DNA from: an uncultured Anaerolineaceae bacterium
GTDB taxonomy: Bacteria > Chloroflexota > Limnocylindria > Limnocylindrales > CSP1-4
Direction: 5' to 3'
Assembly: GCA_964579825.1 (NCBI GenBank)
Contig: CAZOHT010000010.1
Coordinates: 36,624-100,623 of the forward strand
Length of the DNA stretch: 64,000 nt
Positions within the stretch are counted from its first letter, which is position 1, and the number at the start of each line of letters is the position of its first letter. Of the stretch, positions 19,417-38,750 are shown piece after piece. The position numbers were made by a program, and so were the translations under genes. Below the pieces are notes generated by a model. The model was not told the DNA's origin. It saw only the letters and a program-made list of their open reading frames with translations, and searched no databases.

Positions 19417-19578
19417 CGTGCGTGGCGGCTGCGACGCGACGACCTATGGTCGGGCGTCCCGTCATGGTAGGCACCAACCCGTCGGAATGCATCTTGGAGC
19501 CCATCGCGGTGCCGGAGGTCAACGGGTCAAGATGCGTCCCGGGCCGACATCCTGCCTGTACCCGATACCATTGGACCG

Positions 19579-20619
19579 GTGAACACCTCCTCCCGGACCG
19601 TGGCACGTCGAGCTGCGGGTTTGGCGCTCCTCGTGATCGTCATCGTCGGCGTCTCGGCAGCACCCGCCGCGATCACCCCCGTGCCCACGCCGCCCCCGAC
19701 GACCGTGCCGATCGCGGGCACCGCCGCGACCCGGGCCCCGACCGTACCGGAGGCCAAGACCGTCCGCGTCACGTCCATCAAAGCGCTGCTCAACGCGCTC
19801 GAGGACGACACGGTCGACGCGATCGTCGTCAAAGACGGCACCTACCGCATCAGCCCGTCGAATGAGCTCGCTGAAGACTCGCTGTGGATCGGTGCCCGCT
19901 TCGCTGACCGGACGAGGCCAGTCCTTGTCCGCGCGGAGACGCGCGGCGGTGTGACCTTCGAGGGGGATGGGCGGGGCGACTACGGGGCATTGAGCTTCGA
20001 GGACGGCGCTCACCATCAGACGTGGGACGGTTTCAACTTCACGAACATGGTCGCCGATCAGACCGGGGTCATCGAGGTCGGAGGATATGTCCCGAGGCGT
20101 ACGCCGCATCACATCACGGTGACGAACATCCGCATCGAGTCGAGTGTCAAGGGCCGCGCCACGACGATGGTTGGCCGCTCCTGGGACCATGGCATCTACA
20201 TCGCGCACGCGAAAGGCACCGGTCCCCATGACCTGGTCTTCGAAGACATCTACGTCGATGGTCGTGGCGGCCTCGCGAGCGCCGTCCACTTCGATCACGG
20301 CGACGAAGCGAATCCTGCCGCTCGTGACGTCACGGTCCGCCGACTCACCGTGGTCGGGACACAACAAGCCATCATCCTCTGGGAACCTACCCTGCACGAC
20401 ATCACATTCGACTCGGTCACGATCCGGGACGTGCTCCGATTCGGGATCCGTTTCGAATCGATCGGCGCCACAGGCATCACGTTCGCCAATATCACATCGA
20501 TCCGATCAGGCTGCCAGGGGTTCTTCAGCTCGGAGGGCGACGCGCCACCCGGGGTCACGTTCGTGAACGCCGACCTCGACCCCGCGCGAGACCCCGCAGC
20601 GGACGGTTGCCCCGACTGA
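19579..20619 (+). CDS. secreted right-handed beta-helix protein (pectate-lyase-fold, polysaccharide lyase/hydrolase-like); paralog A
   Basis: GTG start. Signal/anchor RRAAGLALLVIVIVGVSAAPA followed by a Pro/Thr linker. Repeating N-I-x-I/V turns (ITVTNIRI, DVTVRRLTV, ITFDSVTI, ITFANIT). Well over half of positions match 24086-25534 by eye. Confidence 0.7.
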   Translation: MNTSSRTVARRAAGLALLVIVIVGVSAAPAAITPVPTPPPTTVPIAGTAATRAPTVPEAKTVRVTSIKALLNALEDDTVDAIVVKDGTYRISPSNELAEDSLWIGARFADRTRPVLVRAETRGGVTFEGDGRGDYGALSFEDGAHHQTWDGFNFTNMVADQTGVIEVGGYVPRRTPHHITVTNIRIESSVKGRATTMVGRSWDHGIYIAHAKGTGPHDLVFEDIYVDGRGGLASAVHFDHGDEANPAARDVTVRRLTVVGTQQAIILWEPTLHDITFDSVTIRDVLRFGIRFESIGATGITFANITSIRSGCQGFFSSEGDAPPGVTFVNADLDPARDPAADGCPD

Positions 20620-20734
20620 CGGTCTCGGAGATCGCGTGGCGGGGGTGGTGGCGAAGCGCAACAGCCCGCGCCGGCATCGATTGACCGTCCAGACCGGACC
20701 ATCCATCATGGTGCACCCCGTTGGAGGACGATTC

Positions 20735-21418
20735 GTGGCTGAAACTCGTCGGTTCGCGACGACCCGGACCTGGTTGTGGTTCATCGCGCTCGCGACGATC
20801 GTCGGTGCGACCGTCGCGATCCTTGCAAGTCAACTCGTCGCCCCCACCTACGCGGGTCGCGCGACGATCCTCGTCTCGCCGATGCCGCGCGAGGCCCAGA
20901 TCACGAATGGCGATCTCGAGGTCACTCGGGTCGCGGCTGCCACGCTCGGCGAGCTGGCGACGACAGGCCCCGTCCTCGATCGAGCGATCGATTCCACAGA
21001 TGTCGCCACGAATGCGACGGCCCTCGCAAAGGTGGTCACGACGCGCGTGCCAGTCGGGACGAGCCTGCTCGAGATCACGGTCACTCAGTCCAACAAGGAC
21101 GCGGCTGCAGAGCTGGCCAACGCGATCGCCGCCGAACTGATCGACTATGCCGACCCGAACCGCTCCAACGGAGGGTCCGCCTGGCAGGTCGACGCGGCCG
21201 TGGTCGACCCCGCGATCCCGCCTACCCAGGCCGAGGGCTTCGGGACCGGGATGACCGTCGTCCTTGCTGCTCTTATCGCCATGGTCATCGCGGCGAGCCT
21301 CGCGTTCCTCGTTGAGAACATGCGGGCCAACCAACCCTTCTCCGACAAGGATCGGAGCGAAGGTCGACGCAGCGACTCGAACTTGGACCGTGGAGACTCC
21401 CGCCAGCCGATCGGCTAA
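20735..21418 (+). CDS. wzz: polysaccharide chain-length determinant (Wzz/PCP-like), no kinase domain
   Basis: TM1 (WLWFIALATIVGATVAILA), a periplasmic-type segment (PVLDRAI...TSLLEITVTQSNKDAAAELANAIA) and a C-terminal TM (MTVVLAALIAMVIAASLAFLV). GTG at 20735 lies 6 nt after GGAGGA. Confidence 0.7.
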   Translation: MAETRRFATTRTWLWFIALATIVGATVAILASQLVAPTYAGRATILVSPMPREAQITNGDLEVTRVAAATLGELATTGPVLDRAIDSTDVATNATALAKVVTTRVPVGTSLLEITVTQSNKDAAAELANAIAAELIDYADPNRSNGGSAWQVDAAVVDPAIPPTQAEGFGTGMTVVLAALIAMVIAASLAFLVENMRANQPFSDKDRSEGRRSDSNLDRGDSRQPIG

Positions 21419-21445
21419 CCGCTCGACCGCGATGGTGACCAACCC

Positions 21446-22813
21446 ATGAGAGCGGCTGCCCTCCGGATCTCGACCGTGACCGGCGTTGACGAGCGGGTCG
21501 CGCTTCGTCTTGCGATCCTCGGGATCCTCGCGTCGGGTGCGATCGTCGGAGCGGCCGTTCTGACACGTGGCCTGCTGCCCGCCGCGGGTCTGGCGGGGGC
21601 CCTGCTCGTCATCGTGGCGAGCCTCCGGTGGCCGCTGATGCTGCTCTACGTCTATGTGTTCCTGATCCCGCTCGAGGAACTCATCGTCCTGGGCCCGTTC
21701 GGGACCGTCACGCGCATCGCGGGCGTCCTGTTCATCGTGGCCTACGCACTGCCGCGGATCGGGCGCCTTCGACTGACGGCGATGCCGTCTGCTGCGTGGG
21801 CCTACCTCGGTTGGGCCATCCTGAGCATCGTGTGGGCGTTGGATCCGACCGTGGCCATGGCGGAGGCCGCCGTCCTCATCCTCCTGTTCGCCATCGGGAC
21901 CGTCATCGCCATCGTGGTCGTCGAGCGCCCGTCCGTCGTGGGCCCCCTCATGTGGACGTATAGCGTCTCCGCCACGATCATCGCCCTCTACGGGCTATTG
22001 CTGTTCCTGATGGGCCAGACGATCGATGGCAACCGGATCGCCGCGCTCCCCGGACAGGACCCGGCCTACTACGCGGCCCTGCTGCTCCCAGCCCTGGCCT
22101 TCAGCCTCGACCGTCTCGTCCAGGGCCGGGATCTCGCACCCAGCGCAGCGGTGGCCATCATCACGCTGACCGGCGTCGTGGTGTCCGGCACACGCGGCGC
22201 CTGGGTCAGCGCCGGCATCGTCATCCTGTTCTTCGTCCTGCCGCGGATCAGCACGCCGAAGCGGATCATCGCCGTCCTTGGGATGCTCATCGTGCTGCTT
22301 GGGAGCCTCCAGGTCCCGGCTGTCTCGTCGCTGCTCACCGAACGGACCGAGATCGCCGTGTCGAGCGGAGGCGCCGGACGGACGGACATCTGGACCGTCG
22401 GCATCGGGATCATCAAGCAGGCCCCGATCGTGGGCGTGGGTCTGGCGAACTTCCCGACCGCCTATACGGCCGAACTCGTGCGCGACTCCGACGTCGGTGT
22501 CTACTCGGCGGAAAACCCCGCCCACCGCAACTCGCACAGCATCATCATCGGGACGATGGGTGAGTTGGGCATCATCGGTTTCGCATTCCTGTGCCTCCTG
22601 ATCCTGCCGCTGGTGTTCCGACCCGGTTGGGGAGTCGATGCCGTGGCGATCCAGTCCGCCCTCGTGGCGCTCGTCATGAGCGCCCTGTTCCTCGACATCA
22701 TCAATCGCAAGCAGTTCTGGCTCATCGTCGGGCTTGCGTGTGGCCTGGCCTACGTCGCTCGTTCGGAACGTCTGCGCACGTTGGTCCGACCGTCGGCGCC
22801 CACGCCGAGCTGA
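21446..22813 (+). CDS. wzy: O-antigen ligase/polymerase-family membrane protein (Wzy-like)
   Basis: More than 10 TM segments and the Wzy_C-type loop (TRGAWVSAGIVILFF ... HRNSHSIIIGTMGELGIIG). Confidence 0.75.
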   Translation: MRAAALRISTVTGVDERVALRLAILGILASGAIVGAAVLTRGLLPAAGLAGALLVIVASLRWPLMLLYVYVFLIPLEELIVLGPFGTVTRIAGVLFIVAYALPRIGRLRLTAMPSAAWAYLGWAILSIVWALDPTVAMAEAAVLILLFAIGTVIAIVVVERPSVVGPLMWTYSVSATIIALYGLLLFLMGQTIDGNRIAALPGQDPAYYAALLLPALAFSLDRLVQGRDLAPSAAVAIITLTGVVVSGTRGAWVSAGIVILFFVLPRISTPKRIIAVLGMLIVLLGSLQVPAVSSLLTERTEIAVSSGGAGRTDIWTVGIGIIKQAPIVGVGLANFPTAYTAELVRDSDVGVYSAENPAHRNSHSIIIGTMGELGIIGFAFLCLLILPLVFRPGWGVDAVAIQSALVALVMSALFLDIINRKQFWLIVGLACGLAYVARSERLRTLVRPSAPTPS

Positions 22814-22814
22814 G

Positions 22815-23744
22815 GTGGCGCATCGTCCACCCCTCGCGGCGCCGGTCGCTCGTGCCGTCGTGACGGGCGGGGCCGGGTTCGTCGGAAGTCACCTCGTCGA
22901 TCGACTGACCCGCGACGGCGTTGCCGTCCTCGTCGTCGATGACCTGTCGACCGGGCGGATGGACAACCTGCCGTCCAGCGTGACCCTCGAGGAGGTCGAC
23001 ATCGCGACCGACGAACTCGAGGCCATGTTCCGCCGCTGGCGTCCGGACGTCGTCTTCCACCTGGCGGCGCAAGCCAGTGTCCCGCTCTCGCTGAAGGACC
23101 CGATGCGTGACCTGGCCGTCAACGTCGTCGGGACCCATCGCGTCGCCTCGTCGGCACGCCTGGCTGGCGCCGAACGACTCGTGTTCGTGTCGTCTGGTGG
23201 TGCCATCTACGGCGAGACGTCGCGACCAGCGACGGAACGAACGACCCCGAAGCCGTCCTCCTACTACGGGGTCCACAAGCTCGCCGCCGAGGGCCATGTC
23301 AGCCTGTGTGGGATCCCGTTCGCGATCGCGCGGCCGTCGAATATCTATGGGCCTATCCAGACCGGAGGTCTCGACGGGGCGGTCGTCGCAGCGTTCGTGG
23401 AGGCTGCGAGCTCCACGGGCTCGATCCGGATCGACGGCGATGGGTCGCAGACGCGCGACTTCGTCGACGCCCGCGATGCGGTCGAGGCATTACTCCTGCT
23501 CGCCGACCAGGACACGCCTGTCGGGACCTGGAACATCGCCTCCGGGCGGCGTGTCTCGATCACCGAGCTAGCCGACTTGGTGGAAGCGGCACTTGGCCGT
23601 CCGCTCATTCGCACGTCCTCGTCGAGCCGGCCCGGCGACGTCCAGCACTCGTCCGTCTCGAGTACGAAGCTTCGGCGGCTCGGCTGGCGGCCGCGGCGCG
23701 ACCTGGCCACCGGCGTGCGCGAACTGATCGCCCTTCGCGCCTGA
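22815..23744 (+). CDS. NAD-dependent sugar epimerase (UDP-glucose 4-epimerase-like SDR)
   Basis: VVTGGAGFVGSHLV, VFVSSGGAIYG and YYGVHK (YxxxK). GTG at 22815 follows the wzy stop directly. Confidence 0.8.
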   Translation: MAHRPPLAAPVARAVVTGGAGFVGSHLVDRLTRDGVAVLVVDDLSTGRMDNLPSSVTLEEVDIATDELEAMFRRWRPDVVFHLAAQASVPLSLKDPMRDLAVNVVGTHRVASSARLAGAERLVFVSSGGAIYGETSRPATERTTPKPSSYYGVHKLAAEGHVSLCGIPFAIARPSNIYGPIQTGGLDGAVVAAFVEAASSTGSIRIDGDGSQTRDFVDARDAVEALLLLADQDTPVGTWNIASGRRVSITELADLVEAALGRPLIRTSSSSRPGDVQHSSVSSTKLRRLGWRPRRDLATGVRELIALRA

Positions 23745-23993
23745 CCGATCCACACGGGACTGCCGCGTCCGCGACGTGATCCGCAGAGGCAGGCTACACT
23801 GGTGCCCGCAGGCATCACATTTGCCTCGCAGGGACCGGCCCCATCGGGACCCCACCCGATCGACGTCCCACGACCCCCAAGCCCCGCGTAGGTCCTGGCT
23901 CCGGCGAGGCTGCGACCTGCCCGAGGATCCTCGCACCCTGGCGCTCACCGCCACGGTCAAGACTCTGGGACCGGGCGTCGCCATGCGACACCA

Positions 23994-24085
23994 CCCGGCC
24001 CTCGAAGCACACCCGTCGCGAGGCGGGGCCGCAAAGCCACGGGACCCCCAGGGTCAGCCGGGCTGCCGGAAGGAGTACCGATCGC
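23994..24085 (+). promoter_or_regulatory. candidate c-di-GMP-I (GEMM-I)-like riboswitch leader, copy 1
   Basis: A-GCACA-[CCCGUC-GCGA-GGCGGG]-GCCGCAAAGCC...GGUCAGCCGGGCUGCCGGAAGGAG runs into the SD and the ATG at 24086. It aligns block-for-block with the Vc2 GEMM-I core as I recall it (GCAAA / GNRA hairpin / GACGCAAAGCC / AGCGGGGUUACCGA). A second copy lies at 38657-38750 (-). Confidence 0.6.
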
Positions 24086-25534
24086 ATGCATCGGGACACG
24101 TTCAACCGGGTCGACGAGACCCCCACGCCGCTCCCCACCCAGTCCGTTCGACGGCCCCGGCCGGTGCGTCGGCGGGCGATCGGCGTCGTCGCACTCGTGT
24201 TGCTGGCCCTCGTCGGATCGACCGTCGAAGTGTTCGCCGGTGCCGCCTCGGGCGGCCTGGTGAACCCGGAGACCACGACCCAGGAGGCTACGACGTCCGT
24301 CACGTCGTACCAGGAAGGCAGCGCCAGGATCACCTACAACGGTCGCTGGGCGAACGCGTCATACAGTGGCTACTCGGGCGGACTTGCCCGCGGTTCGATC
24401 CAGCGCAACGCCGGAGCGACGTTCGCGTTCACCGGCAAGAGCGTCTCCTGGGTCGGGCCGGTCGGTCCGACGCGAGGCGCGGCAAAGGTCTATGTCGACG
24501 GGACCTACGTCAAGACCGTCAGCACATACGCCAGCCGATTCGTCGCATCAAAGACCCTCTTCAGCAAGGCCTTCACGACGTCCGGGGCCCACACCCTGCG
24601 CATCGTCGTCGTGGCGACGACCGGTCACCCCCTGGTCGCCATCGACAAGTTCACCGTGAGCTCGACGAGCACCACAACGGCGCCGGTGGCTCCGACCACG
24701 ACCGGAACCACGGTCACGGTGACCTCGATCCCGGCCCTGCTGACCGCCCTGGATAACAACAACGTGGGCCAGATCATCGTGAAGAACGGGACCTATCGCA
24801 TCAGTCCGTCCAACCAGACCGCCTCGAACTCGCTATGGATCGGCGGGCGCTTCGCGGACCGGACCAGGCCGATCGTCGTTCGAGCGGAGACGCGCGGTGG
24901 CGTGATCTTCGATGGCGGGGGCGGATCGAGCTTCGGCGGTCTGAGCTTCGAGGATGGGGCCCATCATCAGACCTGGGATGGCTTCACATTCGCGAACATG
25001 GCGGCGACGGAGACCGGGATCATCGAGGTCGGCGGGTACGTGCCGCGCCGAGCGCCCCACAACATCATCGTGCGCAACATCGTGATCAAGAGCTCATGCA
25101 CGGGCCGGGCAACGACCTCGAGTGGGCGGAGCTGGGATCATGGGATCTACATCGCCCATGCGCTCAAGACAGGTCCGTATACCCTCCGATTCGAGAACAT
25201 CACGGTGGACGGGCGCGGCGGCCTCGCCAGTGCGGTCCACTTCTACCACAGCACGTCGGAGGCCCCGAACGCCTCCAGCGTCGTCGTCCGAGGACTGCAC
25301 GTGACGGGCACCCAGCAGGCCGTCATCCTGTGGGATTCGACCCTGCGGAACATCACGATCGACGACGTGGATGTCAACGGGGCCCTCGGCTACGCCATCC
25401 GCTACGAGGGGGCCGGATCATCCGGCATCATCCTGTCTAACATCACCACGAGGAACTCCGGCTACCAGGGGTTCTACAGCACGCAGGGCTCGAAGCCGGC
25501 CGGCGTCACGTTCATCAACAACAGCTTCAACTGA
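24086..25534 (+). CDS. membrane-anchored CBM-like beta-sandwich plus beta-helix protein; paralog B
   Basis: N-terminal tail with VDETP motif and a TM segment (AIGVVALVLLALVG). A carbohydrate-binding-module-like domain follows (YNGRW...GATFAFTGKSVSWVGPVGPTRGAAKVYVDG...HTLRIVV), then a Thr-rich linker and a beta-helix domain paralogous to 19579-20619. Confidence 0.7.
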   Translation: MHRDTFNRVDETPTPLPTQSVRRPRPVRRRAIGVVALVLLALVGSTVEVFAGAASGGLVNPETTTQEATTSVTSYQEGSARITYNGRWANASYSGYSGGLARGSIQRNAGATFAFTGKSVSWVGPVGPTRGAAKVYVDGTYVKTVSTYASRFVASKTLFSKAFTTSGAHTLRIVVVATTGHPLVAIDKFTVSSTSTTTAPVAPTTTGTTVTVTSIPALLTALDNNNVGQIIVKNGTYRISPSNQTASNSLWIGGRFADRTRPIVVRAETRGGVIFDGGGGSSFGGLSFEDGAHHQTWDGFTFANMAATETGIIEVGGYVPRRAPHNIIVRNIVIKSSCTGRATTSSGRSWDHGIYIAHALKTGPYTLRFENITVDGRGGLASAVHFYHSTSEAPNASSVVVRGLHVTGTQQAVILWDSTLRNITIDDVDVNGALGYAIRYEGAGSSGIILSNITTRNSGYQGFYSTQGSKPAGVTFINNSFN

Positions 25535-25628
25535 GAGTCGCCCAGGACTCTCAGCCAATATGCCCCGATGTGCCTTGCAGGCACGCCGGGGCAGGACTGG
25601 GGTCGGATTGGGTTCGCGCTCTGGACCG

Positions 25629-26873
25629 TTGATCGCCGATACGGAGCGGCCACGCCTCCGCATCGCCATGGCCCTCTATTCCACCCTCGACCATGACAGT
25701 CGGGTCCTGCGGGAGGCTGGCAGTCTGGCTGCGGCCGGCCACGACGTCACCGTCTACTGCCTCGCCTGGGCCGGCACCACCGAGGTCTCCTTCCGCGTCG
25801 TCACGCATCGACCGGATCGCTCAAGCGTCCTGCCGGATGCCAGCAGCTCGTTCCACCGTGGTGGTCGTGTCGGTCCGCTCCGCCGACTGACACGCCTGGC
25901 CGGATGGATGAGCGGCTACATCCGGAACATCCGGGCGTGGGGCAGCTGGATCGTCGAGGACGCCGGAGCCGTCGACGCCTGGCACGCGCATGACCTTCCA
26001 GGGCTGATCGCCATCGGACCTCGCGTCCGCTCCGGTGCGGCCCTCGTGTACGACAGCCACGAGATCTTCCTCGAGGCGGGCACGGCGACCCGCCTTCCGG
26101 GTCCGGTGCGTCGACTCCTGGCCGCGTACGAGCGACGACTCGTCCGCCGCGTCGATGCGATGGTGACTGTCAACGAGGCCTACGCCGGCGTCCTCGAGAA
26201 GCGGCTCGCCCCACGCCGCATGGTGATCGTTCGGAACTGCCCGCCGCGCTGGCAGCCGACGGCCGATGGCGCTCCTCGGCTGCGGGCATCGGCCGGGCTC
26301 GCCGACGATGTCCCGCTCATCCTGTACCACGGGTCCCTCGCGGCCGATCGCGGCATCGAGCAGTCGGTCGCCGCCCTGTCCGGACCTGGCATGGAGGATG
26401 TCCATCTGGCGTTACTGGGCTTTGGGAACGTCGACCGACTCGGCATCGATGGTGCTCCGGCGTCGGCTCGCGTCCATCGGGTCGAGGCCGTGTCGCCGGC
26501 GGAGTTGCTGGGGTGGGTCTCGGAAGCCGACGTCGATGTCATGCCCCTCCAGCGGTCCAGCCTCAATCATTGGCTATGCACGCCGAACAAGCTGTGGGAG
26601 AGCCTCGCAGCTGGAGTCCCCGTGGTGGTGAGCGACTTCCCCGTGATGCGCAGGATCGTCATGGACGACCCGGGGGGACCTCTGGGCGCCGTCTGCGATC
26701 CGGCCGACCCGGCGTCGCTCGCGGTCGCTGTCCGTTCGCTCCTCGACAGGCCGCCATCTGACCGTGCGGTGCTGCGGGCCCGGTGTCGCGCCGCTGCAGC
26801 CGAGCGCTGGAACTGGGAGACGGAGTCCGCTCGCCTGATCGACCTCTATGGCGACCTGGGCCGCACAGGGTAG
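25629..26873 (+). CDS. glycosyltransferase family 4
   Basis: LRIAMALYS N-terminus, a GT-B fold and the C-terminal EX7E-type region (CTPNKLWESLAAGVPVVVSD). Start is uncertain (TTG 25629, ATG 25560 or ATG 25668). Confidence 0.75.
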   Translation: MIADTERPRLRIAMALYSTLDHDSRVLREAGSLAAAGHDVTVYCLAWAGTTEVSFRVVTHRPDRSSVLPDASSSFHRGGRVGPLRRLTRLAGWMSGYIRNIRAWGSWIVEDAGAVDAWHAHDLPGLIAIGPRVRSGAALVYDSHEIFLEAGTATRLPGPVRRLLAAYERRLVRRVDAMVTVNEAYAGVLEKRLAPRRMVIVRNCPPRWQPTADGAPRLRASAGLADDVPLILYHGSLAADRGIEQSVAALSGPGMEDVHLALLGFGNVDRLGIDGAPASARVHRVEAVSPAELLGWVSEADVDVMPLQRSSLNHWLCTPNKLWESLAAGVPVVVSDFPVMRRIVMDDPGGPLGAVCDPADPASLAVAVRSLLDRPPSDRAVLRARCRAAAAERWNWETESARLIDLYGDLGRTG

Positions 26874-26915
26874 CGCCGTGCGTTCCGCCCATCGACGCGG
26901 TCCGCGCCTCCCGAG

Positions 26916-27722
26916 TCAGCCGCGCTTCGACATCCGATAGGCCACATCCTCACGGATCCGTGCGACGTCGTCGCGCAGATTGCCCATGCGATCCGCCTGC
27001 CACGACCGAGGGTGGATGAGGAGATAGACGACACGCTCCCCGCGATCGATGGCCGAGTACGGATCGCCATGCATCCACTGGTCGGGGTAGAGCAGGTCGC
27101 GATGGTAGCTGGTCACGGTCTGGAGGAACGACTCGTCATAGGTTTCGAGCCGCACGCCCATGCTGCCACGGAAGGCGGGGTCCGCCAGGATCTCGGTGTT
27201 CTTCACTTCGAGTCGCCGGTTCAGGAAGTCGCCGTGTGAGGCGACGACCGACATCGGGAGCCCGGTCACGCGCCTGAGCCGCGCGATGTTCACGGCGAAC
27301 CGTTCGCGCGCCTCCGGGATCAGGGCTCGGGCGGCCGCGGTGGTCCGCGGACGCCGGTCCTTGGCGACGGTGGCCAACTCCTCGTAGTGATAGCTCGCCT
27401 CTCCCCCTCGGGCGTCGATCGCCTGCATCAGACCCACATCCAGCGTGGAGAGCCGGAAGAAGAACGAGCCGCGGACACCGAGACGCGCCTCGATCTCCCA
27501 CATCGACCGCGCGGTCCCTGGGTCCGTATCGATGTCGTGGCGAAGCAGGAGGTAGCGCTGCCCAGGAACCCCGTCGCCCCGCGCGAGCTCCCAATACCGC
27601 CCGATCGGAACGATGGCGTACCCGTGATCGATCGCGTGTCGCAGCAGCGCCTCGTAGGCCTCGAGGCGGGACGCCATGAAGAAATCGGCCACGACCCGGT
27701 CACGCACCGTCCGGAGGTCCAT
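26916..27722 (-). CDS. polysaccharide deacetylase-like / carbohydrate esterase-like protein (tentative)
   Basis: 268 aa. LLLRHDIDTD and ASHGDF look like a metal-binding Asp/His pattern of deacetylase-type folds. Family assignment is weak. Confidence 0.45.
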   Translation of the reverse strand: MDLRTVRDRVVADFFMASRLEAYEALLRHAIDHGYAIVPIGRYWELARGDGVPGQRYLLLRHDIDTDPGTARSMWEIEARLGVRGSFFFRLSTLDVGLMQAIDARGGEASYHYEELATVAKDRRPRTTAAARALIPEARERFAVNIARLRRVTGLPMSVVASHGDFLNRRLEVKNTEILADPAFRGSMGVRLETYDESFLQTVTSYHRDLLYPDQWMHGDPYSAIDRGERVVYLLIHPRSWQADRMGNLRDDVARIREDVAYRMSKRG

Positions 27723-27728
27723 CGGTCC

Positions 27729-29291
27729 TCAGCCCCGACCGATCCGGCGCGTCACTGGTCGCGCTCGTCGTTCGATGCTTCGCTGGAGGGCTCCGGGTAC
27801 CAGGTGGCGTCGCTTTCCGTCGACGAGCGTGCGGGGGCCGGCGGCCGAGAGCGTGTGGAACCCGTCGGGTTGCGGGGACCCGGGCGGCGGCGGGATCGTC
27901 GCCACCGGTGTCTCCGAGAAGGATCGTGTCGTCAACGTGTCGACGCGGCAGATCGTCAACTGCGCGCCGTATCCACCGACGCAGTACTGGCTCGGACGGT
28001 ACAGGGTCCCATCGACGACGAATGGCGTACCGCCCGGACGCGCGGATCGAGCGTCCGTCTTGACCGGATTGAGTTCGTGGGGCTCCCAGGGCCCCGTGAG
28101 CGCGGGCGCGTGCCAGATGAACAGGTTGTGCGTCGGCCCGAGGTCGGCGCTCGTCGCGAACATCCACCAACGGTCGCCGACGCGCGTCACGGAGGCATCG
28201 ACCGCCGGGAAGTCCGGCAGCAGCGTGACCTCCGCCCGCCACCCGCGTGGCCAGTCACGGGCCCGGTAGAGGATGAGCTCGCGAGCGGCAGACGTCTCCG
28301 GGAGCATGAACGTCTCGCCCTGGTCCTCGATGAGGTAGGGATACGAGGCGTGGACGCCGACGTCGAGGACGGTCTCCGGCTCGGTCGACGTCCCATCGGG
28401 GCCGAACGCGACATGCGCGATGGTGCCTCGGCCCTCGCGCTGGTCGTAATCCTCGAAGAAGACGTGGAGGTCGTCGCCGACGTGCGCTCCGAACGGATCC
28501 GCTGCGAATCGGCCAGGGCGCAGTGGCAACCATGCGGTCGGCAATTCGGCGCGAGCGCGGACCACCGTCTCGATCGGCGCATCGATGACGCCCACGTTCC
28601 AGTCGTCATGCTCCAGGACAGCGCGGGGCATGTTCCAGAGACGTCGACCCACAGAGGCGATGCGCAGGACCGGCTCTGGGAGCGCATCAGCCCGCCCTGC
28701 GGGCTTCCCGTCACGCGATGACTCCGCAGGTGGCTGGCTCCCGTCGAGTCGTTTGAGCAGCTCACCGGCGGGCCAGCCGGCGGTGTCCAGGAGGAGTCGA
28801 TCGAGCTGGCTGCCACGGTGCCACGCAAGGAGTCCCTCGCGCAGCACGCGATCACCGGGAGCGGCGATGAGCGCGACGCGCATCGGCCGGTCCTGGACAT
28901 AGGCGACGCGGGCCACCCGCTCGGGCGCGCGTGACATCGCGTTCCCGAAGACGAAGGTCCAGGTCTCGCCGGCGGATCCGACCTCCTGGAGGTCCGAGCC
29001 CAGGCGCAGGTCCAGGGCGACATCCACCGGCACACCGGCGCGATCGCGGACCGCTGACAGCGAGTCAGGAACGGGCACCACCGCCATGGGTCCGGAGCCA
29101 CCGAGACCCGGGTCCGTCGCCGGACCGGGCAGCATCCGGTCCCATCGAGCGATCGCGACACCCTCGAGCGCTTCGACGGCGTCGATGACGGCGGTCTGCC
29201 AGGCCAGGATCGGCCCATCGGTGACGATGGCGGCCGACAGCTTCGCCGTCAGCAAGTGGTCAGTCACGGCCGGGTTCACGCTTGCGCCCAC
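27729..29291 (-). CDS. hypothetical EPS-locus protein; C-terminal half resembles the GH43-like beta-propeller 'glucosamine inositolphosphorylceramide transferase-family' bacterial proteins
   Basis: FAADPFGAHVGDDLHVFFEDYDQREGRGTIAHV...YPYLIEDQGETFMLPET...WWMFAT matches my recollection of that family. The N-terminal ~230 aa are unassigned. GTG start. Confidence 0.45.
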   Translation of the reverse strand: MGASVNPAVTDHLLTAKLSAAIVTDGPILAWQTAVIDAVEALEGVAIARWDRMLPGPATDPGLGGSGPMAVVPVPDSLSAVRDRAGVPVDVALDLRLGSDLQEVGSAGETWTFVFGNAMSRAPERVARVAYVQDRPMRVALIAAPGDRVLREGLLAWHRGSQLDRLLLDTAGWPAGELLKRLDGSQPPAESSRDGKPAGRADALPEPVLRIASVGRRLWNMPRAVLEHDDWNVGVIDAPIETVVRARAELPTAWLPLRPGRFAADPFGAHVGDDLHVFFEDYDQREGRGTIAHVAFGPDGTSTEPETVLDVGVHASYPYLIEDQGETFMLPETSAARELILYRARDWPRGWRAEVTLLPDFPAVDASVTRVGDRWWMFATSADLGPTHNLFIWHAPALTGPWEPHELNPVKTDARSARPGGTPFVVDGTLYRPSQYCVGGYGAQLTICRVDTLTTRSFSETPVATIPPPPGSPQPDGFHTLSAAGPRTLVDGKRRHLVPGALQRSIERRARPVTRRIGRG

Positions 29292-29408
29292 ACTATCCGA
29301 CTATATCCGACCGGACGAACCGCACCCGGACCGGGCCGCCCGCGCACGCTACGATCGGGGCCTGATGACACCGCTTTCGCCGACGCAGGCCGAAGTCGAC
29401 CACCCTGG

Positions 29409-30602
29409 ATGAGTGACATCCTCTGGGTCACGCCGACCTATCCGTGGCCCCAGGAGCCCTCGTTCGGCACCTTCTACCAGACCCAGGCGCAGGCGGTCCA
29501 CCGTCAGGGCGTGGAGCTCACGGTGGTCTGCCCGACGCCGTGGGCGCCGTGGCCGCTGCCCTACGCCAGCGCTCGCTGGCGCCGCTACGCGGATGCCCCG
29601 CGGACGGACCGTGACGGCTCCGTTCCGGTCATCCGGCCACCATATGTGAATGTGCCGGGTGAGCCAGGGTGGGCGCGTCCCGACCAGCGCATCGCGGGCG
29701 CGGTCTGGAGGGCACGTGCAGCGTGGTTCGGCGCCAAGGTGATCCACGGTCACTACGCGATCACCGGGCTGGCCGCCTGGCGCCTCGCCCGACGGACCGG
29801 CCTGCCGTTCGTGTTGACCTTCCACGGCAGCGACATGAACACCTGGCCCGACGAGCATCCCGATCGACTGCCCGACCTTCGCCGCGCGCTGCACGACGCC
29901 AGTGCCGTCTTCGCGGTCAGCCAGGCACTCGCCGATCGGGCGGCGTTCTTGACCGGCGTCGAGACCCAGCATCTGCCGCTCGGCTGTGACCACCGGGCGC
30001 TGGCGGCCGGGGCGCTCCCCAGGGACGTCGCGCGGACGGCCCTCGACCTCCCGAATGACCGCATCATCGTGTTGTTCGTCGGGCACCTCAAGCGCACGAA
30101 GGGCGTCCGTGAACTCGTGGAGGCCGTCCTCGAGGTCGGCGATCCATTCATGGCCGTGCTCGTTGGCGACGGCCCGGAGCGCGGGTACGGCACGTCGGAT
30201 CCGTTGGCGGATGGCCATGTCCTGTACCGCGGGGCGCTCCCCCACGATGACGTGACGGCGTACATGTGCGCCGCCGACGTGCTGGTCCTGCCGTCGTATG
30301 GTGAGGGACTTCCGACGGTCTTCGTGGAAGCCGGGTCCCTGCGGCTCCCGGTCATCGGCAGCCGAGTCGGCGGGATCCCGGAACTGCTCGAGCCTGACCG
30401 CGGCACGATCCTGGGCGATATCCAGCCCGCGACGATCGGGGCGGCCCTGCGGGCATTCCGTCAGGATCGTCCGGCTGCGGAGGCGGCGGCCGAACGCCTG
30501 CACGATCATGTCCTTCGCGAGTACGACATCGATCGCAACGCGGCGCGACTGGTCGACACCTACCGTCGGATCGCACCAACTGTCGGGAGCGGTCGGACGT
30601 GA
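29409..30602 (+). CDS. glycosyltransferase family 4
   Basis: ILWVTPTYPW N-terminus, FHGSDMN, and the C-terminal VLVLPSYGEGLPTVFVEAGSLRLPVIGSRVGGIPE (EX7E region). Confidence 0.85.
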   Translation: MSDILWVTPTYPWPQEPSFGTFYQTQAQAVHRQGVELTVVCPTPWAPWPLPYASARWRRYADAPRTDRDGSVPVIRPPYVNVPGEPGWARPDQRIAGAVWRARAAWFGAKVIHGHYAITGLAAWRLARRTGLPFVLTFHGSDMNTWPDEHPDRLPDLRRALHDASAVFAVSQALADRAAFLTGVETQHLPLGCDHRALAAGALPRDVARTALDLPNDRIIVLFVGHLKRTKGVRELVEAVLEVGDPFMAVLVGDGPERGYGTSDPLADGHVLYRGALPHDDVTAYMCAADVLVLPSYGEGLPTVFVEAGSLRLPVIGSRVGGIPELLEPDRGTILGDIQPATIGAALRAFRQDRPAAEAAAERLHDHVLREYDIDRNAARLVDTYRRIAPTVGSGRT

Positions 30603-31195
30603 CGGGATCGAAGCGCGCGATGGACTTGCTGCTTGGGTCGGTCGGTCTGATCGTCGCGATCCCGATGATGGGCCTCATCGCGTTGCTGATGCGACTGTCG
30701 GGCGACGATGGGCCGTTCCTGTACCGGGCGCCACGGATCGGCGAGGGCGGTCGGGTCATCACGGTCCTCAAGATCCGCACCATGCGCGAGGGAGCGACGG
30801 GATCTCGCCTGACCTCGACCAGTGACGCGCGGATCACCCGCGTCGGACGGCTGTTGCGACGGGTCCGCATCGATGAGCTGCCACAACTCATCAACGTCGT
30901 GCGGGGCGAGATGTCGCTGGTGGGTCCTCGCCCAGAGGACCCGATGTTCGTCGACTTCACCGACCCTCTCCACCGCAAGGTCTTCACGGCTCGGCCCGGC
31001 ATCACCGGCCTGGCGCAACTCGAGTTCCACGACGAGGCGAGGATCCTGGCCGGCGAGGATTCCGAGCGGCGGTATCGGGAGGTCGTCCTGCCGGCCAAGT
31101 TGCGGCTCGACGCCAAGTACCTTGACGAGCGGACGACGATGCTCGATCTCAAGATCCTGGCCAGGACCGTCGGAGCGGTCCTGGGAAGCGACTAG
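30599..31195 (+). CDS. undecaprenyl-phosphate sugar phosphotransferase (small monotopic 'bacterial sugar transferase', PglC/WbaP C-terminal type)
   Basis: KRAMDLLLGSVGLIVAIPMM re-entrant helix, then RIDELPQLINVVRGEMSLVGPRP and RPGITGLAQ. GTG start overlaps the upstream stop. Confidence 0.9.
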   Translation: MTGSKRAMDLLLGSVGLIVAIPMMGLIALLMRLSGDDGPFLYRAPRIGEGGRVITVLKIRTMREGATGSRLTSTSDARITRVGRLLRRVRIDELPQLINVVRGEMSLVGPRPEDPMFVDFTDPLHRKVFTARPGITGLAQLEFHDEARILAGEDSERRYREVVLPAKLRLDAKYLDERTTMLDLKILARTVGAVLGSD

Positions 31196-31233
31196 GTCGC
31201 TGAGCGCGGGGCGGGTCAGGTCACCCCGTCACG

Positions 31234-31776
31234 TCACGCGACCGGGGTCCCGTCGGTGCCACGAGAGTGGACATGGCCGGTCGCAACATGGATCACGGTA
31301 CCGATGGCCAGCCCGATGGTGAATCCGGTCAAGTTGTCGATCACATCGGCGCTCTGGCACTGCCGATCGAGGACGGTGACCACCAGTTGGACGGCTTCGA
31401 TCGCGAACGGGAACGCGATCCCCGCCAGGATCAAGCCCACCTTGGCCTTCGATCCGGGCATCAGTCCGATCGCCACGCCGAGTGGCATGAACAGCAGCAC
31501 GTTGAGCCCCGTCTCCCCGAACCGGAGGACCTCGCGGATCGGGGCCATGGAGAGACGGCTGAGATCGCAGGCGCCGCTGCCCTCCGCACCGGACCGGAAC
31601 ACGCCGCCACCTGGCGTCAGCGTCGCGGCGACGATGATCCCGACGCCGAAGACGAGCCCCCAGGCGATCACGTTCGACACGCGCAGCGTCCGACCGAGGC
31701 GCCCGGCGAGGGCGAACGCCAGGATCGCCGAGATCACGAGGCCCGGCAGGAACCCCGGATACTCTCGGAGCCTCAT
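31234..31776 (-). CDS. VanZ-like family membrane protein
   Basis: 180 aa with 4-5 TM segments. NVLLFMPLG and the C-terminal DVIDNLTGFTIG are VanZ-like. Confidence 0.65.
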   Translation of the reverse strand: MRLREYPGFLPGLVISAILAFALAGRLGRTLRVSNVIAWGLVFGVGIIVAATLTPGGGVFRSGAEGSGACDLSRLSMAPIREVLRFGETGLNVLLFMPLGVAIGLMPGSKAKVGLILAGIAFPFAIEAVQLVVTVLDRQCQSADVIDNLTGFTIGLAIGTVIHVATGHVHSRGTDGTPVA

Positions 31777-31828
31777 CGGTCGGCCAGCGCGTCAGGTGAG
31801 GGAGGCCGTCGAGCCCGGTCCGATCCGA

Positions 31829-33082
31829 TCAGCGTCGTGCCGATCCCAGGATCGCTTCGAGCCCGCCCACGACCCGATCGACATCCGTCGCCCGCAGGCC
31901 TGGCCAGATCGGCAGGGAGACGACCCGCTCGTACTCCCGCGTCGCGACCGGACAATCGGTCGCGACGTAGCCGCGCTCCGCGTAGTACGGGTGCAGGTGC
32001 AGCGGGATGAAGTGCACGCTGGTCCCGATCCCGAGGGCCTTGAGCCCGTCGATGACCCCGGCACGGTCGATCGTCAGCCTGTCGAGGTGCAACCGCACGA
32101 TGAACAGATGCCACGCATGCGATCCGTCCGGCGTATCGGCCGGGAGTTCCAGGAGGTCGGCCACGGGTCCGCCGCCGAGCCGCTCCGCGTACCCCGAGGC
32201 GAGCGCCCGGCGTGCGGCGAGCAGCTCCTCGGCCCGATCGAGCTGGACGAGGCCCAAGGCTGAGGCCATGTCGGTCATGTTGTACTTGTACCCGACGTCC
32301 TCGATCTCGTAGTACCAGGAGCCGGCCGCGGTATAGCGATTCCAGGCGTTGCGGCTGATCCCGTGGAGCGACATCAGGCGCGCCCGATCGGCCACGTCCG
32401 GGTCATCCGTGACGAGCATCCCGCCTTCGCCGGTCGTGATGGTCTTCGTCGCGTAGAACGAGTAGGCACCCGCCTTGCCGAAGGTCCCCGCGTACCGTCC
32501 CTGGGCGGATCCGACGCGCGACGGGAACGAGTGGGCGGCGTCCTCGAGAACCGGGATCCCGAGCGGGTCCAGCACCTCGAGGAGGCGAGCCATGTCCGCG
32601 GGATAGCCCGCCAGGTGGACGATCACGACGGCTCGCGTCCGCTCCGTGACCGCGGCGAGGATGGTCTCAGGCGTCGCATTCAGCGTGACCGGGTCGACAT
32701 CGACCAGGACGGCGCGGGCTCCCAGGTAGGCCACGACCTCCGCGCTGGACGCGAAGGTCCAGGTCGGCACGATGACCTCGTCGCCTGGGCCGACGCCGAA
32801 CGCCTCCAGGGCGAGGTGCAACGCGGCCGTGGCCGAATTCAGGGCGATCGCGAAGCGCCCACCGACCTTGGTCGCGAATGCCTCCTCGAACCGCTTGGTC
32901 CGGGCGCCGGTCGTCAGCCACCCTGAATCCAGGACCTCCATGACCGCATCCTTCTCGCGATCCGTGATCGACGGGAAGGCGAAGGGCAGGAACGGCTCGG
33001 TCACGGCCGTCCGGCCTGCCACTGACGGTGGATCGGACGGCGGAGTCGAGAGCCCAAGGTCGGATGGTGTGCTGGCTTCCAT
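31829..33082 (-). CDS. DegT/DnrJ/EryC1/StrS-family sugar aminotransferase (PLP)
   Basis: NSATAALHLAL, EVIVPTWTFASSA and SFYATKTITTGEGGML (PLP-Lys). ATG at 33082 is chosen; the rest of the 582-aa track ORF is Arg-rich shadow. Confidence 0.85.
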   Translation of the reverse strand: MEASTPSDLGLSTPPSDPPSVAGRTAVTEPFLPFAFPSITDREKDAVMEVLDSGWLTTGARTKRFEEAFATKVGGRFAIALNSATAALHLALEAFGVGPGDEVIVPTWTFASSAEVVAYLGARAVLVDVDPVTLNATPETILAAVTERTRAVVIVHLAGYPADMARLLEVLDPLGIPVLEDAAHSFPSRVGSAQGRYAGTFGKAGAYSFYATKTITTGEGGMLVTDDPDVADRARLMSLHGISRNAWNRYTAAGSWYYEIEDVGYKYNMTDMASALGLVQLDRAEELLAARRALASGYAERLGGGPVADLLELPADTPDGSHAWHLFIVRLHLDRLTIDRAGVIDGLKALGIGTSVHFIPLHLHPYYAERGYVATDCPVATREYERVVSLPIWPGLRATDVDRVVGGLEAILGSARR

Positions 33083-33162
33083 GCGCCCATGATAGGTGGC
33101 CGAGCCGTTCGGGAGCCGCTTCCATGTCAGGCACTGGTGCGGCCCGGCCACACCAGAGACGA

Positions 33163-34326
33163 TCAGTCGATCGACTCGAGGTGATCGGACAGGAACCCGA
33201 TGACGCGGTCGACCTCGGTGTCGCGCAGGGCCGGCGTGATCGGCAGGTTGACGATCCGGTGGCAGATCCCCTCGGCGATCGGGGCCTGTCCTGCGGCATA
33301 GCCCCACCGCTCGAGTCGGTCGACGACCGGATGGATCGGCGATACGAACCAGTCGCCGAGATCCACGCCGGCTTTCTCGCTTGCCGCGACGACGGTCGGG
33401 CGATCGGAGACGAGCAGCGGGTACCGAAGGAATGCGTGGACGATCCCTTCCGGTTCGGCTGGGACGGTTCGACCTCGATCGCGCAGCCAGGCGGAATACC
33501 GCCCCGCGATCGCTCGGCGCCGAGCCACCTCGGCGGCAAGATGCGGGACACGGTCCGCGCCGTATCCCGCCTGCCACGACGACAGGCCGGTGAGGAACCC
33601 GGCAGGCATCGTCGCCGTTTCGAGTTCATCCTGGCTCGACGAGCTGGGGACGAGTCCTCGCCGGCTGAGCGCTCGGTACGCGGAGCGACCGGTCCGGAAC
33701 AGGCGTCCGTGGCCGCCATGCCGCATCCCGAACACCAGGGTCCGCAACAGCGCGATCGAGGCCGACGAGGGAGCGGGCGCCTCCGCTTCGATCACCGCGA
33801 GGCGGGCCGCGATCGCCGGATCGGTGGCGACCGCGAACCCCCCGAGGCCGGTCGAGATCGTCTTGCTCCACTGGGTCGAGAAGAACGATGCCGGTGTGGA
33901 CGCGCCATTCGGACGATCACGGTAGGTGCCGCCCAGGCCATGCGTGCAATCGTCGATGACCCTGATATCGCGTGCCGCACCCAGGGACGTGAGGCTTGCG
34001 AGGTCGGCCGATAGCCCGAAGGTGTTCTGGGCGATGATCGCGCGGGTCCTCGGCCCGATGGCTGCCTCGACCGCGGCCGGATCGATCGTCAGGGTGGCCG
34101 GATCGATGTCGACATAGATCGGTGTCGCGCCGGTGTACAGGATCGCGTTGGGTACCGCGACACAGGTGAACGCCGGGAGGATGACCTCATCCCCGGGGCC
34201 GATGTCGCAGGCACGCAGGATCGCGTAAAGGGCCACGCGGCCCTTGGCGAACAGGAAGATCGATCCGGGCGGTACCCCGGTGACCTCGCCGACCCGCTCC
34301 CGGAACAGCGCCCGGCTATCGCTCAT
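33163..34326 (-). CDS. DegT-family aminotransferase-like protein (divergent second copy)
   Basis: GRVALYAILRA, EVILPAFTCVAV and FSTQWSKTISTGLGG (Lys in the PLP position). ATGA overlap with the upstream GT4. Confidence 0.7.
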   Translation of the reverse strand: MSDSRALFRERVGEVTGVPPGSIFLFAKGRVALYAILRACDIGPGDEVILPAFTCVAVPNAILYTGATPIYVDIDPATLTIDPAAVEAAIGPRTRAIIAQNTFGLSADLASLTSLGAARDIRVIDDCTHGLGGTYRDRPNGASTPASFFSTQWSKTISTGLGGFAVATDPAIAARLAVIEAEAPAPSSASIALLRTLVFGMRHGGHGRLFRTGRSAYRALSRRGLVPSSSSQDELETATMPAGFLTGLSSWQAGYGADRVPHLAAEVARRRAIAGRYSAWLRDRGRTVPAEPEGIVHAFLRYPLLVSDRPTVVAASEKAGVDLGDWFVSPIHPVVDRLERWGYAAGQAPIAEGICHRIVNLPITPALRDTEVDRVIGFLSDHLESID

Positions 34327-35612
34327 CGGCCGGCACCGAACAGCAGTGGGTCGTACTGACGGGCCAGCGTGGCATAGGACCGCTCACGCGCCACCCAGGT
34401 TCGCCCGTTCGACCCCATCGCCTGTCGCCGGTCTGTCGGTAGATCGCGCATCGACCGGATCGCGGCCGCCAGTGCAACAGCATCGTCCGGCGGGATCGTC
34501 AGCCCGCAGTCGGCCTCCTGGACCAGGTCGTTCGCTCCGTCCGCGGCGAGGATGATCGGGCGGGCGGCCGCCATGTAGTCATAGACCTTGTTCGGTGAGA
34601 TCCCGAATCGATACAGCGGACTCTTGTGATACCCGACGTAACAGACGTCGAATCCGCTCAGGGTAGACGGCACGTCGGCCTTCGGGATCGCGCCGACGAA
34701 CCGCACGGCCGGCAGGTCCGCCGCCAGCGACCGAAGGCGATCGCCCTCGGACCCCTGGCCGACGATGACGATCTCGATCCGCTCACCGTCGAGCAGCCGC
34801 GCCGCCTCGAGCAGGTTGTCGATCGCATTGGCGAGCGCCAGCGTCCCGACGAAGCCGACCCTGAAGGGCCGGTCCCCGTCTCCCGTCGTCGAAGGCGGCA
34901 CCGTTGCCGTCGTCGGCTCTGCCAGCACATCGGCACTGACACCGTTGGGGATGACGGTCAACTTGCCTGGATCGGCCCCGCGGTCGGCCAGGTGCGAGGC
35001 CAGAGCCGGCAAGACCGAGACGATCCGATCGGCGACCCGGTAGGCTCGATCCTCGAACCACTGCATCGTGAACACCAGCGGGTGCCGGGGCGACAGGCCA
35101 CCAAGCTCACGCAGGGTCAGCGGCCAGACGTCGCGGACCTCGAACAGCAGGCGACTGCCGAACCGTCGGGCCCAACGCGCTGCCGGGAGGATCGGGTACA
35201 AGGACGGCGACGACACGACGATCGCGTCAGGCTCCGGCAAGCGGCCCGTCGGCAGCCGGTACAGGCGCAACATGAACACGATCATGTTCCAGACTCGACC
35301 GATGCTGATCGCGCGCCGGTACGTCGGCACACGCACCCAGCAGTACGTGAGGCCATCCAGGGGCTCGACAGTGTAGGCTCCCGCAACGGCCGGTTGGCGG
35401 GCGAACAGATGGGAGTAGGACCCGGAGATGATGACGACGGTCGCGCCGAGCCGCACGAGCTCCCGCCCCAACTCGTAGTGGCGGAACTCCATCCCGTGGT
35501 CGGCGGACCCGGCGTACTGATTCACGAACCAGACCACACGCGGTCGCGGGTCATCTGGACCCGATGGGCGGACGTCGATCATCGGCGGGTCGCGAGCACC
35601 TCGGCGAGACAT
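34323..35612 (-). CDS. glycosyltransferase family 4 (WbuB-like)
   Basis: VVWFVNQYAG, FEVRDVWP, and the C-terminal GISPNKVYDYMAAARPIIL. ATG at 35582 is an alternative start. Confidence 0.8.
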   Translation of the reverse strand: MSRRGARDPPMIDVRPSGPDDPRPRVVWFVNQYAGSADHGMEFRHYELGRELVRLGATVVIISGSYSHLFARQPAVAGAYTVEPLDGLTYCWVRVPTYRRAISIGRVWNMIVFMLRLYRLPTGRLPEPDAIVVSSPSLYPILPAARWARRFGSRLLFEVRDVWPLTLRELGGLSPRHPLVFTMQWFEDRAYRVADRIVSVLPALASHLADRGADPGKLTVIPNGVSADVLAEPTTATVPPSTTGDGDRPFRVGFVGTLALANAIDNLLEAARLLDGERIEIVIVGQGSEGDRLRSLAADLPAVRFVGAIPKADVPSTLSGFDVCYVGYHKSPLYRFGISPNKVYDYMAAARPIILAADGANDLVQEADCGLTIPPDDAVALAAAIRSMRDLPTDRRQAMGSNGRTWVARERSYATLARQYDPLLFGAGR

Positions 35613-35712
35613 GGCAGCCTGGCGCTCAGGCGTACGCCAGCATGAAATGGTCGTCTCCGACTATACAGTCGGCCGATCGGATCGTTGACATGCTCCTTGA
35701 GGGGATCGATCT

Positions 35713-37086: not shown

Positions 37087-37120
37087 CGCCGGCGCCGCGT
37101 CTGGGATCGACCGGACAGCC

Positions 37121-38656: not shown

Positions 38657-38750
38657 CCGATCGGTGCTCCCTTCGGCAACCCGGCTGACCTCGTGGGCCC
38701 CGTGGCTTTGCGGCCCCGCCTCGCGACGGGTGTGCTATTTCGTGGGTTCG
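38657..38750 (-). promoter_or_regulatory. candidate c-di-GMP-I (GEMM-I)-like riboswitch leader, copy 2
   Basis: The reverse complement reads AUAGCACACCCGUCGCGAGGCGGGGCCGCAAAGCCACGGGGCCCACGAGGUCAGCCGGGUUGCCGAAGGGAGCACCGAUCGGAUG. In a hand alignment 73 of 82 nt are identical to copy 1. Differences fall in a loop or keep pairing (A-U to G-U). Confidence 0.6.

Follow-up and report, generated by a model that had tools for sequence, protein, structure and literature searches.

Class I cyclic-di-GMP riboswitch aptamers with a P1 helix overlapping the Shine-Dalgarno sequence precede predicted beta-helix genes in a Limnocylindrales exopolysaccharide locus

Class I riboswitches for cyclic di-guanosine monophosphate (cyclic-di-GMP, c-di-GMP) act mainly by transcription termination in Clostridioides difficile, where their targets are flagella, a protease and adhesins, and the GEMM-Ib switches of Geobacter control transcription of extracellular electron-transfer genes. 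The Geobacter aptamers (such as Gs1761 and Gm0970) form a consistent A-type class with up to ~1600-fold selectivity for cyclic guanosine-adenosine monophosphate (cGAMP) (PMC8835794). In C. difficile, several paralogous copies stand before genes for cell-surface or secreted proteins, and c-di-GMP remodels the surface at the RNA level (PMC6200980). The Vc2 aptamer of Vibrio cholerae, a member of Rfam family RF01051 upstream of tfoY, is reported to act as an off switch (bioRxiv 10.1101/617340). Here we describe two aptamers, RS1 and RS2, in a 64-kb window (the whole stretch analysed, 64,000 nucleotides of contig CAZOHT010000010.1 from an uncultured bacterium of the Limnocylindrales; all positions refer to this window). 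Each lies in front of a gene for a predicted beta-helix protein (gene 1 after RS1, gene 2 after RS2) within an exopolysaccharide locus. RS1 and RS2 are class I c-di-GMP aptamers, and we consider it probable that they keep these genes under OFF control through an overlap of helix P1 with the Shine-Dalgarno (SD) sequence, with c-di-GMP as the most likely ligand.

An Rfam 15 scan of the whole window at the gathering threshold returned only two matches, both to RF01051 (c-di-GMP-I; gathering score 35 bits) and both over the full model. RS1 matched at 24000-24070 on the forward strand (47.6 bits, E = 3.3e-6) and RS2 at 38672-38746 on the reverse strand (55.9 bits, E = 3.1e-8). RS1 and RS2 are genuine class I c-di-GMP (GEMM-I) riboswitch aptamers. 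A sequence-only reading of the window had proposed a GEMM-I (c-di-GMP-I) leader at RS1; the blocks it quoted and its reading of the leader were all present, and the RF01051 covariance model bore the proposal out, placing RS1 12 bits above the gathering threshold. The aptamers end about 16-20 nt 5' of an AUG, on the same strand as the open reading frames (ORFs) that follow, 24086-25534 (+) for gene 1 and 37121-38656 (-) for gene 2.

For comparison with Vc2, we take model position 11 to be Vc2 G20 and the first A after the GC pair to be A47, as counted on the published Vc2 sequence. This mapping agrees with the residue roles in PMC5888326 and PMC6140456, where A47 of Vc2 stacks between two ligand bases and C92 forms a Watson-Crick pair with one ligand guanine. 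Within the ligand-contact set, A47 (A24033 in RS1, A38709 in RS2) and C92 (C24066 and C38676) are kept, while position 20 is A and not G in both copies (A24006 and A38736), just as the sequence-only reading had stated. In RS2, cmscan itself aligned A38736 to model position 11; in RS1 it deleted model positions 8-11, so there the assignment of A20 rests on adjacency to the GC pair.

The two aptamers can be placed in the tetraloop-only 'type II' form of RF01051, which is defined by a GYRA tetraloop without a tetraloop receptor (PMC11218506). This placement is based on their GCGA loop (GCAA or GUGA in relatives) and on the receptor columns (CUAAg...uAuG), which were deleted in the cmscan alignment; there is no 11-nt receptor. 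GYRA loops in general dock onto plain helices (PMC7913685).

In RS1, the 5' strand of P1 (CCUCG, 24000-24004 (+)) pairs with G24073, G24072 and A24071 and then, across a bulge (G24069-A24070), with G24068 and C24067, a register taken from 36 aligned leaders. The joining segment J1/2 consists of A24005 only, and A24006, the Vc2-G20 position, lies directly 5' of the GC pair. P2 spans 24007-24032 in the cmscan alignment, with G24007-C24032 and C24008-G24031 enclosing a 6-bp hairpin (24012-24017/24022-24027) capped by the GCGA tetraloop at 24018-24021. The A47 equivalent, 24033, sits within GCAAAGCC, corresponds to the first A of GCAAAgCc in the alignment with the RF01051 model and is invariant in all aligned leaders. 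The P3 hairpin (24035-24064) carries a bulged AG (24056-24057), ends in a 3-nt loop and lacks the 11-nt tetraloop receptor. The C92 equivalent, 24066, stands in GCC and is aligned to gCCgaa of RF01051; it is followed by the stretch 24067-24075, which holds both the 3' strand of P1 (C24067, G24068, A24071-G24073) and the SD (GGAG, 24072-24075), and then by the AUG of gene 1 at 24086. The RS2 leader (38652-38755 (-)) scored 102.6 bits with our own covariance model, R1, which covers the leader including P1 and the SD. Its aptamer, including P1, runs from 38669 to 38746, with the 5' strand of P1 at 38745-38741, the SD (GGGAG) at 38671-38667 and the AUG at 38656-38654.

RS1 and RS2 share with Vc2 the three-helix junction, the G21-C46 and C22-G45 pairs, the GNRA-capped P2, A47, C92 and P3, and also the design of P1, namely CG, one or more bulged A residues and three more pairs. 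They differ from it in having a GCGA loop without the 11-nt receptor, a much shorter P3 and A in place of G at position 20. Moreover, J1/2 is 5 nt in Vc2 and 4 nt here (1 nt in RS1), and the SD lies here directly in P1, ~20 nt from the aptamer.

The same leader recurs outside the window. Homologues of gene 1 are unnamed or annotated as 'hypothetical protein', and the 54 genome loci that encode its relatives are nearly all from soil metagenome-assembled genomes labelled 'Candidatus Limnocylindrales' or 'uncultured Chloroflexia'. These relatives by themselves make a Limnocylindrales-type Chloroflexota bacterium the most likely source of the window. A search with R1 against these loci and the window found 36 strong leader copies (56-116 bits), spread over the window and 30 of the loci, as well as 2 degenerate copies; nine relatives also passed RF01051 (43-60 bits). 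An exact-match scan of metagenomes for the 36-nt aptamer core gave at least 120 contigs, and in this sample, which was not chosen by downstream gene, the leaders again preceded anchored proteins with a carbohydrate-binding module (CBM)-like domain, some with FN3, and Beta_helix/NosD domains.

In the alignment of the 36 leaders, which was fitted to our own model and so favours the structure, standard pairs filled 90.7% of structure cells, compared to 28-46% when the partners were slid by 1-3 columns; a MAFFT alignment showed the same picture. Three P3 pairs covaried (G-C in 28 leaders and C-G in 5; A-U in 22 and G-C in 12; U-A in 32 and C-G in 4), as did one P1 pair, at columns 13/94 (A-U in 14, U-A in 11). 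P2 was invariant save for one U-G to C-G change, and is therefore uninformative for covariation. Judged from these alignments, recurrence with covariation in 36 leaders is far above chance.

Nearly all ORFs behind this riboswitch subtype start with the motif M(x0-2)-[FY]-W-[DN]-G-x-x-W-[VIL]-x-[DE]; after it come a tail rich in Pro and Arg, 'RDWLAT' and a membrane helix. A riboswitch lies directly 5' of 27 of the 28 motif ORFs in the genome loci, and an M-[FY]-W-[DN]-G ORF follows directly after 81 of 116 unique leaders. The riboswitch class is a known one; here it occurs in an unstudied lineage and has a regulon devoted to one protein family. Our literature search found no paper that connects Limnocylindr* to riboswitches or to c-di-GMP. 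From these sequences, a single compact riboswitch design appears to govern an enlarged family of anchored beta-helix proteins encoded within and near polysaccharide loci, which would put matrix remodelling under control at the RNA level. The leaders give a direct, testable handle on cyclic-dinucleotide signalling in the Limnocylindrales, abundant soil Chloroflexota known here only from metagenome assemblies. As in C. difficile, several paralogous copies precede genes for surface or secreted proteins; here, however, control would be translational, and nearly all targets belong to one beta-helix family with a common N-terminal motif.

Some copies depart from this pattern. Degenerate or partial leaders, some without P2, occur in L030 (6271-6372), L049 (212-294), L020 (5721-5822) and L041 (5810-5912), with R1 scores of 25-62 bits, and are likely to be decaying riboswitches beside intact ones. 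In seven metagenome contigs (L064, L081, L113, L127, L142, L170 and L178) the 36-nt core is joined to another platform, with CCCUC[UC]CGAUAAAG on its 5' side and CGAAGGAGGGCGG..CCCCUCCC on its 3' side. In this L064-type platform the 3' strand of P1 has two possible partners, the 5' strand and a CCCUCC further downstream, and no MFWDG ORF follows.

How might the aptamers act on their genes? No terminator-like site was found between aptamer and start codon in either leader, and transcriptional attenuation was dropped because neither an intrinsic terminator nor a sigma-70 promoter lies near either leader on the riboswitch strand. The sequence-only reading had the aptamer running straight into the SD, consistent with translational control, and the related leaders support this, since in 29-35 of the 36 the first half of the SD is supplied by the 3' strand of P1. 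Pair counts in 76 leaders in the standard register define the P1 design as CC-W-CG with CG-(2 nt)-W'-GG, in which GG is the start of the SD GGAG; 19 nt is the commonest spacing between the 3' strand of P1 and the AUG. At W/W', A-U stands in 38 leaders, U-A in 11, G-C in 1 and U-G in 2. Both CC/GG pairs, which hold the first two SD bases, form in 69/76 leaders, the next U-A pair in 44/76 and the next C-G pair in 40/76, and the whole GGAG lies opposite CUCC in 25/76.

We propose that RS1 and RS2 work like other translational riboswitches in which P1 and the SD overlap. The 3' strand of P1 (CG and WGG, separated by a 2-nt bulge) would double as the start of the SD GGAG, 9-10 nt 5' of the AUG. Ligand bound at the three-way junction would stabilise P1, and the stabilised helix would hold the SD on its 5' strand (CCWCG, often lengthened to CUCC). 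High levels of the cyclic dinucleotide would then mean less 30S binding and less translation of the beta-helix protein, so that, as long as c-di-GMP is high, the cell would halt production of a surface protein that acts on polysaccharide as an enzyme or binds it. For Vc2, nuclear magnetic resonance showed that the P1a helix is complete only when ligand is bound, and that its length governs stable binding (PMC11705072); together with the overlap of SD and P1 in the leaders, this suggests that the switch is a translational one and that its polarity is probably OFF.

Several observations weigh against this interpretation. The SD is already paired in the minimum-free-energy folds of several leaders, which contain no ligand term, and complementarity between the 5' flank and the SD or linker beyond the P1 core is only weakly above shuffles (mean z -0.47); pairing of this extended kind, from the 5' flank to the region between SD and AUG, was not used as evidence. 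Neither the window nor the loci analysed with it yielded a GGDEF, EAL or cGAMP-synthase gene; specifically, there was no GG[DE]EF-motif ORF in the window or 58 loci (~0.7 Mb scanned) and no c-di-GMP enzyme among the other window ORFs. RS1 lacks 3 nt of J1/2, and its minimum-free-energy fold has an alternative P1 (CCGGC 23995-23999 with GCCGG 24065-24069) that would occupy the C92 equivalent, two features that could alter its affinity for ligand. Furthermore, an ON switch would be more sensible if the beta-helix protein were an adhesin or a biosynthetic partner of the polysaccharide. With the same aptamer, a translational ON switch would have the SD trapped in an alternative pairing in the apo state and freed by ligand-induced folding. 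Many P3 loops do contain CUCC (e.g. GGGACUCCCUGAGUC), a complement of GGAG that the folding of P3 would bury, and CCGGC just 5' of P1 in ~13/28 leaders could pair in an apo fold with GCCGG of the P3 3' strand; matrix and adhesion genes are, in general, usually turned on by c-di-GMP. However, the P3-loop CUCC and the upstream CCGGC are missing from many leaders, RS2 included, whereas the SD has a single conserved, covarying partner, the 5' strand of P1, and it is P1 that becomes more stable when ligand binds (PMC11705072). Nor is there a conserved sequestering hairpin around the start codon (mean z 0.04). We therefore regard an ON switch as unlikely. The features of RS1 raise the further question of whether this copy is a decaying or re-purposed riboswitch that no longer responds to cyclic dinucleotides. 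RS1 and its orthologues read CG-A-A20-GC where relatives read CG-AAAU-R20-GC, and such a 3-nt deletion in J1/2, the lower Rfam score of the two copies (47.6 bits), the alternative P1 and the degenerate N-terminal motif of gene 1 (MHRDTFNR compared to MYWDGSNW, with both tryptophans replaced by arginine) could all be signs of decay. Yet the short J1/2 is kept in the orthologous leaders L003, L179 and L180, and across four orthologous loci the RS1-type leader hardly varies, although the proteins encoded there share only 66-91% identity. The few changes keep the structure (GCGA to GCAA in the loop, A-U to G-C or G-U in P3), which argues for function over decay. With the GNRA loop, the P3 pairs, all helices, A47 and C92 intact, and with a score well over the gathering threshold, decay of RS1 seems very improbable.

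A second set of alternatives concerns the ligand. The 116 unique leaders, split by downstream gene, have A, G or C at position 20 (A 55, G 22, C 4; n = 81) before an MFWDG-type gene, and G 27, A 7 and U 1 (n = 35) in other contexts. Position 20 differs among otherwise near-identical leaders, and five A20 leaders are closest to a G20 leader, from which at least three independent A/G changes follow. No second change in the pocket accompanies A20, as A47 and C92 are fixed and the 3' junction GGUUGCC dominates in both groups. In Vc2, G20A binds c-di-GMP at 53 nM and cGAMP at 120 nM, and some natural A-type aptamers are bispecific, with P1 stability affecting selectivity (PMC6140456). It follows that caution over the ligand, as voiced in the sequence-only reading, was warranted, but that a dedicated cGAMP (GEMM-Ib) class is disfavoured: A is not the fixed feature of a class here, since it flips between closest relatives within one gene family, and A20 alone does not define a cGAMP class. 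If the A20 copies, including both in the window, were nevertheless GEMM-Ib-like sensors of 3'3'-cGAMP, or of both dinucleotides, the lineage would employ two signals, and the G20 copies would read c-di-GMP only. The excess of A in this gene family (55/81, compared to 7/35 in other contexts), its presence in both window copies, and the finding that A at this position enables cGAMP recognition in Geobacter aptamers and in Vc2 G20A (PMC6140456, PMC5888326) are in favour of such sensors. They also share with the Geobacter GEMM-Ib aptamers the overall fold. In contrast to those, however, the base at position 20 switches between A, G and C among close relatives, the platform appears translational and the genes are polysaccharide-surface genes; moreover, G20A alone gives dual binding and no cGAMP selectivity (PMC6140456), and no cGAMP synthase was seen in the ~0.7 Mb. 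Hence we judge a GEMM-Ib assignment to be doubtful. A distinct GEMM-I subclass in the Limnocylindrales, in which position 20 is varied to give paralogue-specific thresholds or ligands and the strictly co-inherited MFWDGxxW peptide is the protein-level part of the module, is a speculative idea that we hold to be quite improbable; if true, it would bring riboswitch signalling by cGAMP, or by two dinucleotides, to Chloroflexota and to the remodelling of exopolysaccharide. For the class I OFF switch proposed above, c-di-GMP is the likelier ligand on the sequence evidence, with dual specificity possible. By analogy to the Vc2 mutant, A20 may best be read as tuning, with weaker and possibly dual binding (c-di-GMP and 3'3'-cGAMP), and weaker binding would be in keeping with a translational switch under thermodynamic control. 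Otherwise identical aptamers that naturally differ in carrying A, G or C at the G20 position offer a ready means to gauge the effect of this base on affinity and specificity.

The leaders also resemble RF03167 (c-di-GMP-I-GGC) in their GC-rich P2, their 3' junction and an annotated P1 with an AA bulge. However, the RF03167 consensus has G at the A47 position (GCGAAgCc), which we take to be the feature that names this variant, while every leader here has GCAAAGCC, and the window copies score best on RF01051. Three G20-type leaders (L020 11547-11621, L021 7234-7308 and L017 7475-7553) reach 62-63 bits on RF03167 (gathering score 59), slightly above their RF01051 scores. RF03167 membership was rejected, as G at A47 is absent and these three pass by overall sequence similarity only. 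Automatic annotation would mislabel them as RF03167.

Other candidate structures around the leaders did not hold up. A start-codon hairpin formed by the linker and codons 3-6 (UGGGAUGG) was rejected, as 83 leaders folded no better than shuffled linkers (mean z 0.04). A long-range helix around RS1 (CAUGCGA 23984-23990 with UCGCAUG 24082-24088) lay outside the minimum-free-energy and centroid folds, had an uncompensated mismatch in one orthologue and showed no covariation. Whole-leader folding z-scores (-1.05 and +1.50) are uninformative at ~70% G+C (69.6% for the window). A stretch of ~45 nt on the 5' side of the RS1 aptamer, at 23960-23999 (+) (AGACUCUGGGACCGG..CGCCAUGCGA.ACCA.CCGGCC), is conserved like the aptamer itself in the four orthologous loci; it may contain a promoter or the start of transcription, or be an extra RNA element.

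What are the proteins encoded behind the aptamers? The product of gene 1 (482 aa) has a disordered N-terminus with a hydrophobic anchor (~1-67), a CBM6/35/36-like beta-sandwich (~66-198) and a right-handed beta-helix (~208-482). Gene 2 (511 aa) encodes a paralogue with a MYWDGSNW start, an anchor, a CBM-like domain, a Pro/Thr/Ala linker and a divergent beta-helix; identity between the two is 48% in the first 200 aa and 25% beyond them. A protein identical to that of gene 1, with the same synteny, occurs in 4 metagenome assemblies. Pfam gave only sub-threshold Pectate_lyase_5 and Beta_helix matches for the two window proteins, and Beta_helix/NosD above threshold in relatives; a protein-profile sequence search against the PDB found nothing meaningful, with no chain matched at the sequence level. 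An AlphaFold model of the gene 1 product (15-sequence alignment) had a mean predicted local distance difference test score (pLDDT) of 78, with most 10-residue blocks of 208-482 at 75-95; residues 1-67, where the hydrophobic stretch lies in the sequence, were unstructured.

Foldseek comparison of this model with the PDB placed GH87 alpha-1,3-glucanase catalytic domains first (E = 6e-11). The sandwich matched CBM6/35/36 modules (target-normalised TM-score 0.55-0.64), and the beta-helix matched those of PL6, PL3, PL1, GH28, AlgE4 and phage depolymerases. The model and these matches uphold the earlier description of the gene as 'CBM + beta-helix', and according to the model the fold is a right-handed beta-helix (pectate-lyase-like/CASH superfamily). 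D298, D351-H352 and Y355 are conserved. The gene 1 and gene 2 products are plausibly membrane-anchored or secreted, and may have a catalytic role.

Both riboswitch genes lie in a Wzx/Wzy-type polysaccharide locus, which Pfam scans delimit at 19471-38656. It contains a Wzy_C ligase/polymerase, an epimerase, three glycosyltransferase family 4 (GT4) genes, a GINT1_N-like gene, a Bac_transf priming transferase, a DegT aminotransferase and a Polysacc_synt flippase. One GT4 gene (25560-26873 (+); assigned by Pfam and by the gene call on identical metagenome contigs) starts 25 nt after the gene 1 stop, and the two therefore probably share a transcript.

The N-terminal motif of the riboswitch-led ORFs is found at 38656-38630 (-) in gene 2 and, in the degenerate form MHRDTFNRVDETP, at 24086-24124 (+) in gene 1, as well as in loci L003-L054 and L059-L178. 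Its Asp/Asn codon (codon 4; 38647-38645 (-) in gene 2) ends in U in 60/82 leaders, with a G+C content at the third position (GC3) of 0.27, compared to 0.54-0.87 for its neighbours. The U-ending codon 4 creates an out-of-frame AUG (G-AUG-G); a start-codon hairpin is not supported as the cause.

The window also holds a third beta-helix ORF, at 55165-56199 (+) (Pfam Beta_helix, 3e-14, and NosD), with no riboswitch match upstream. Just past RS2, and adjoining the polysaccharide locus, lie genes for ComB-like (2-phosphosulfolactate phosphatase), ComA-like (phosphosulfolactate synthase) and LarA_N-like proteins, at 40339-41915 (-) and 43182-44669 (-).

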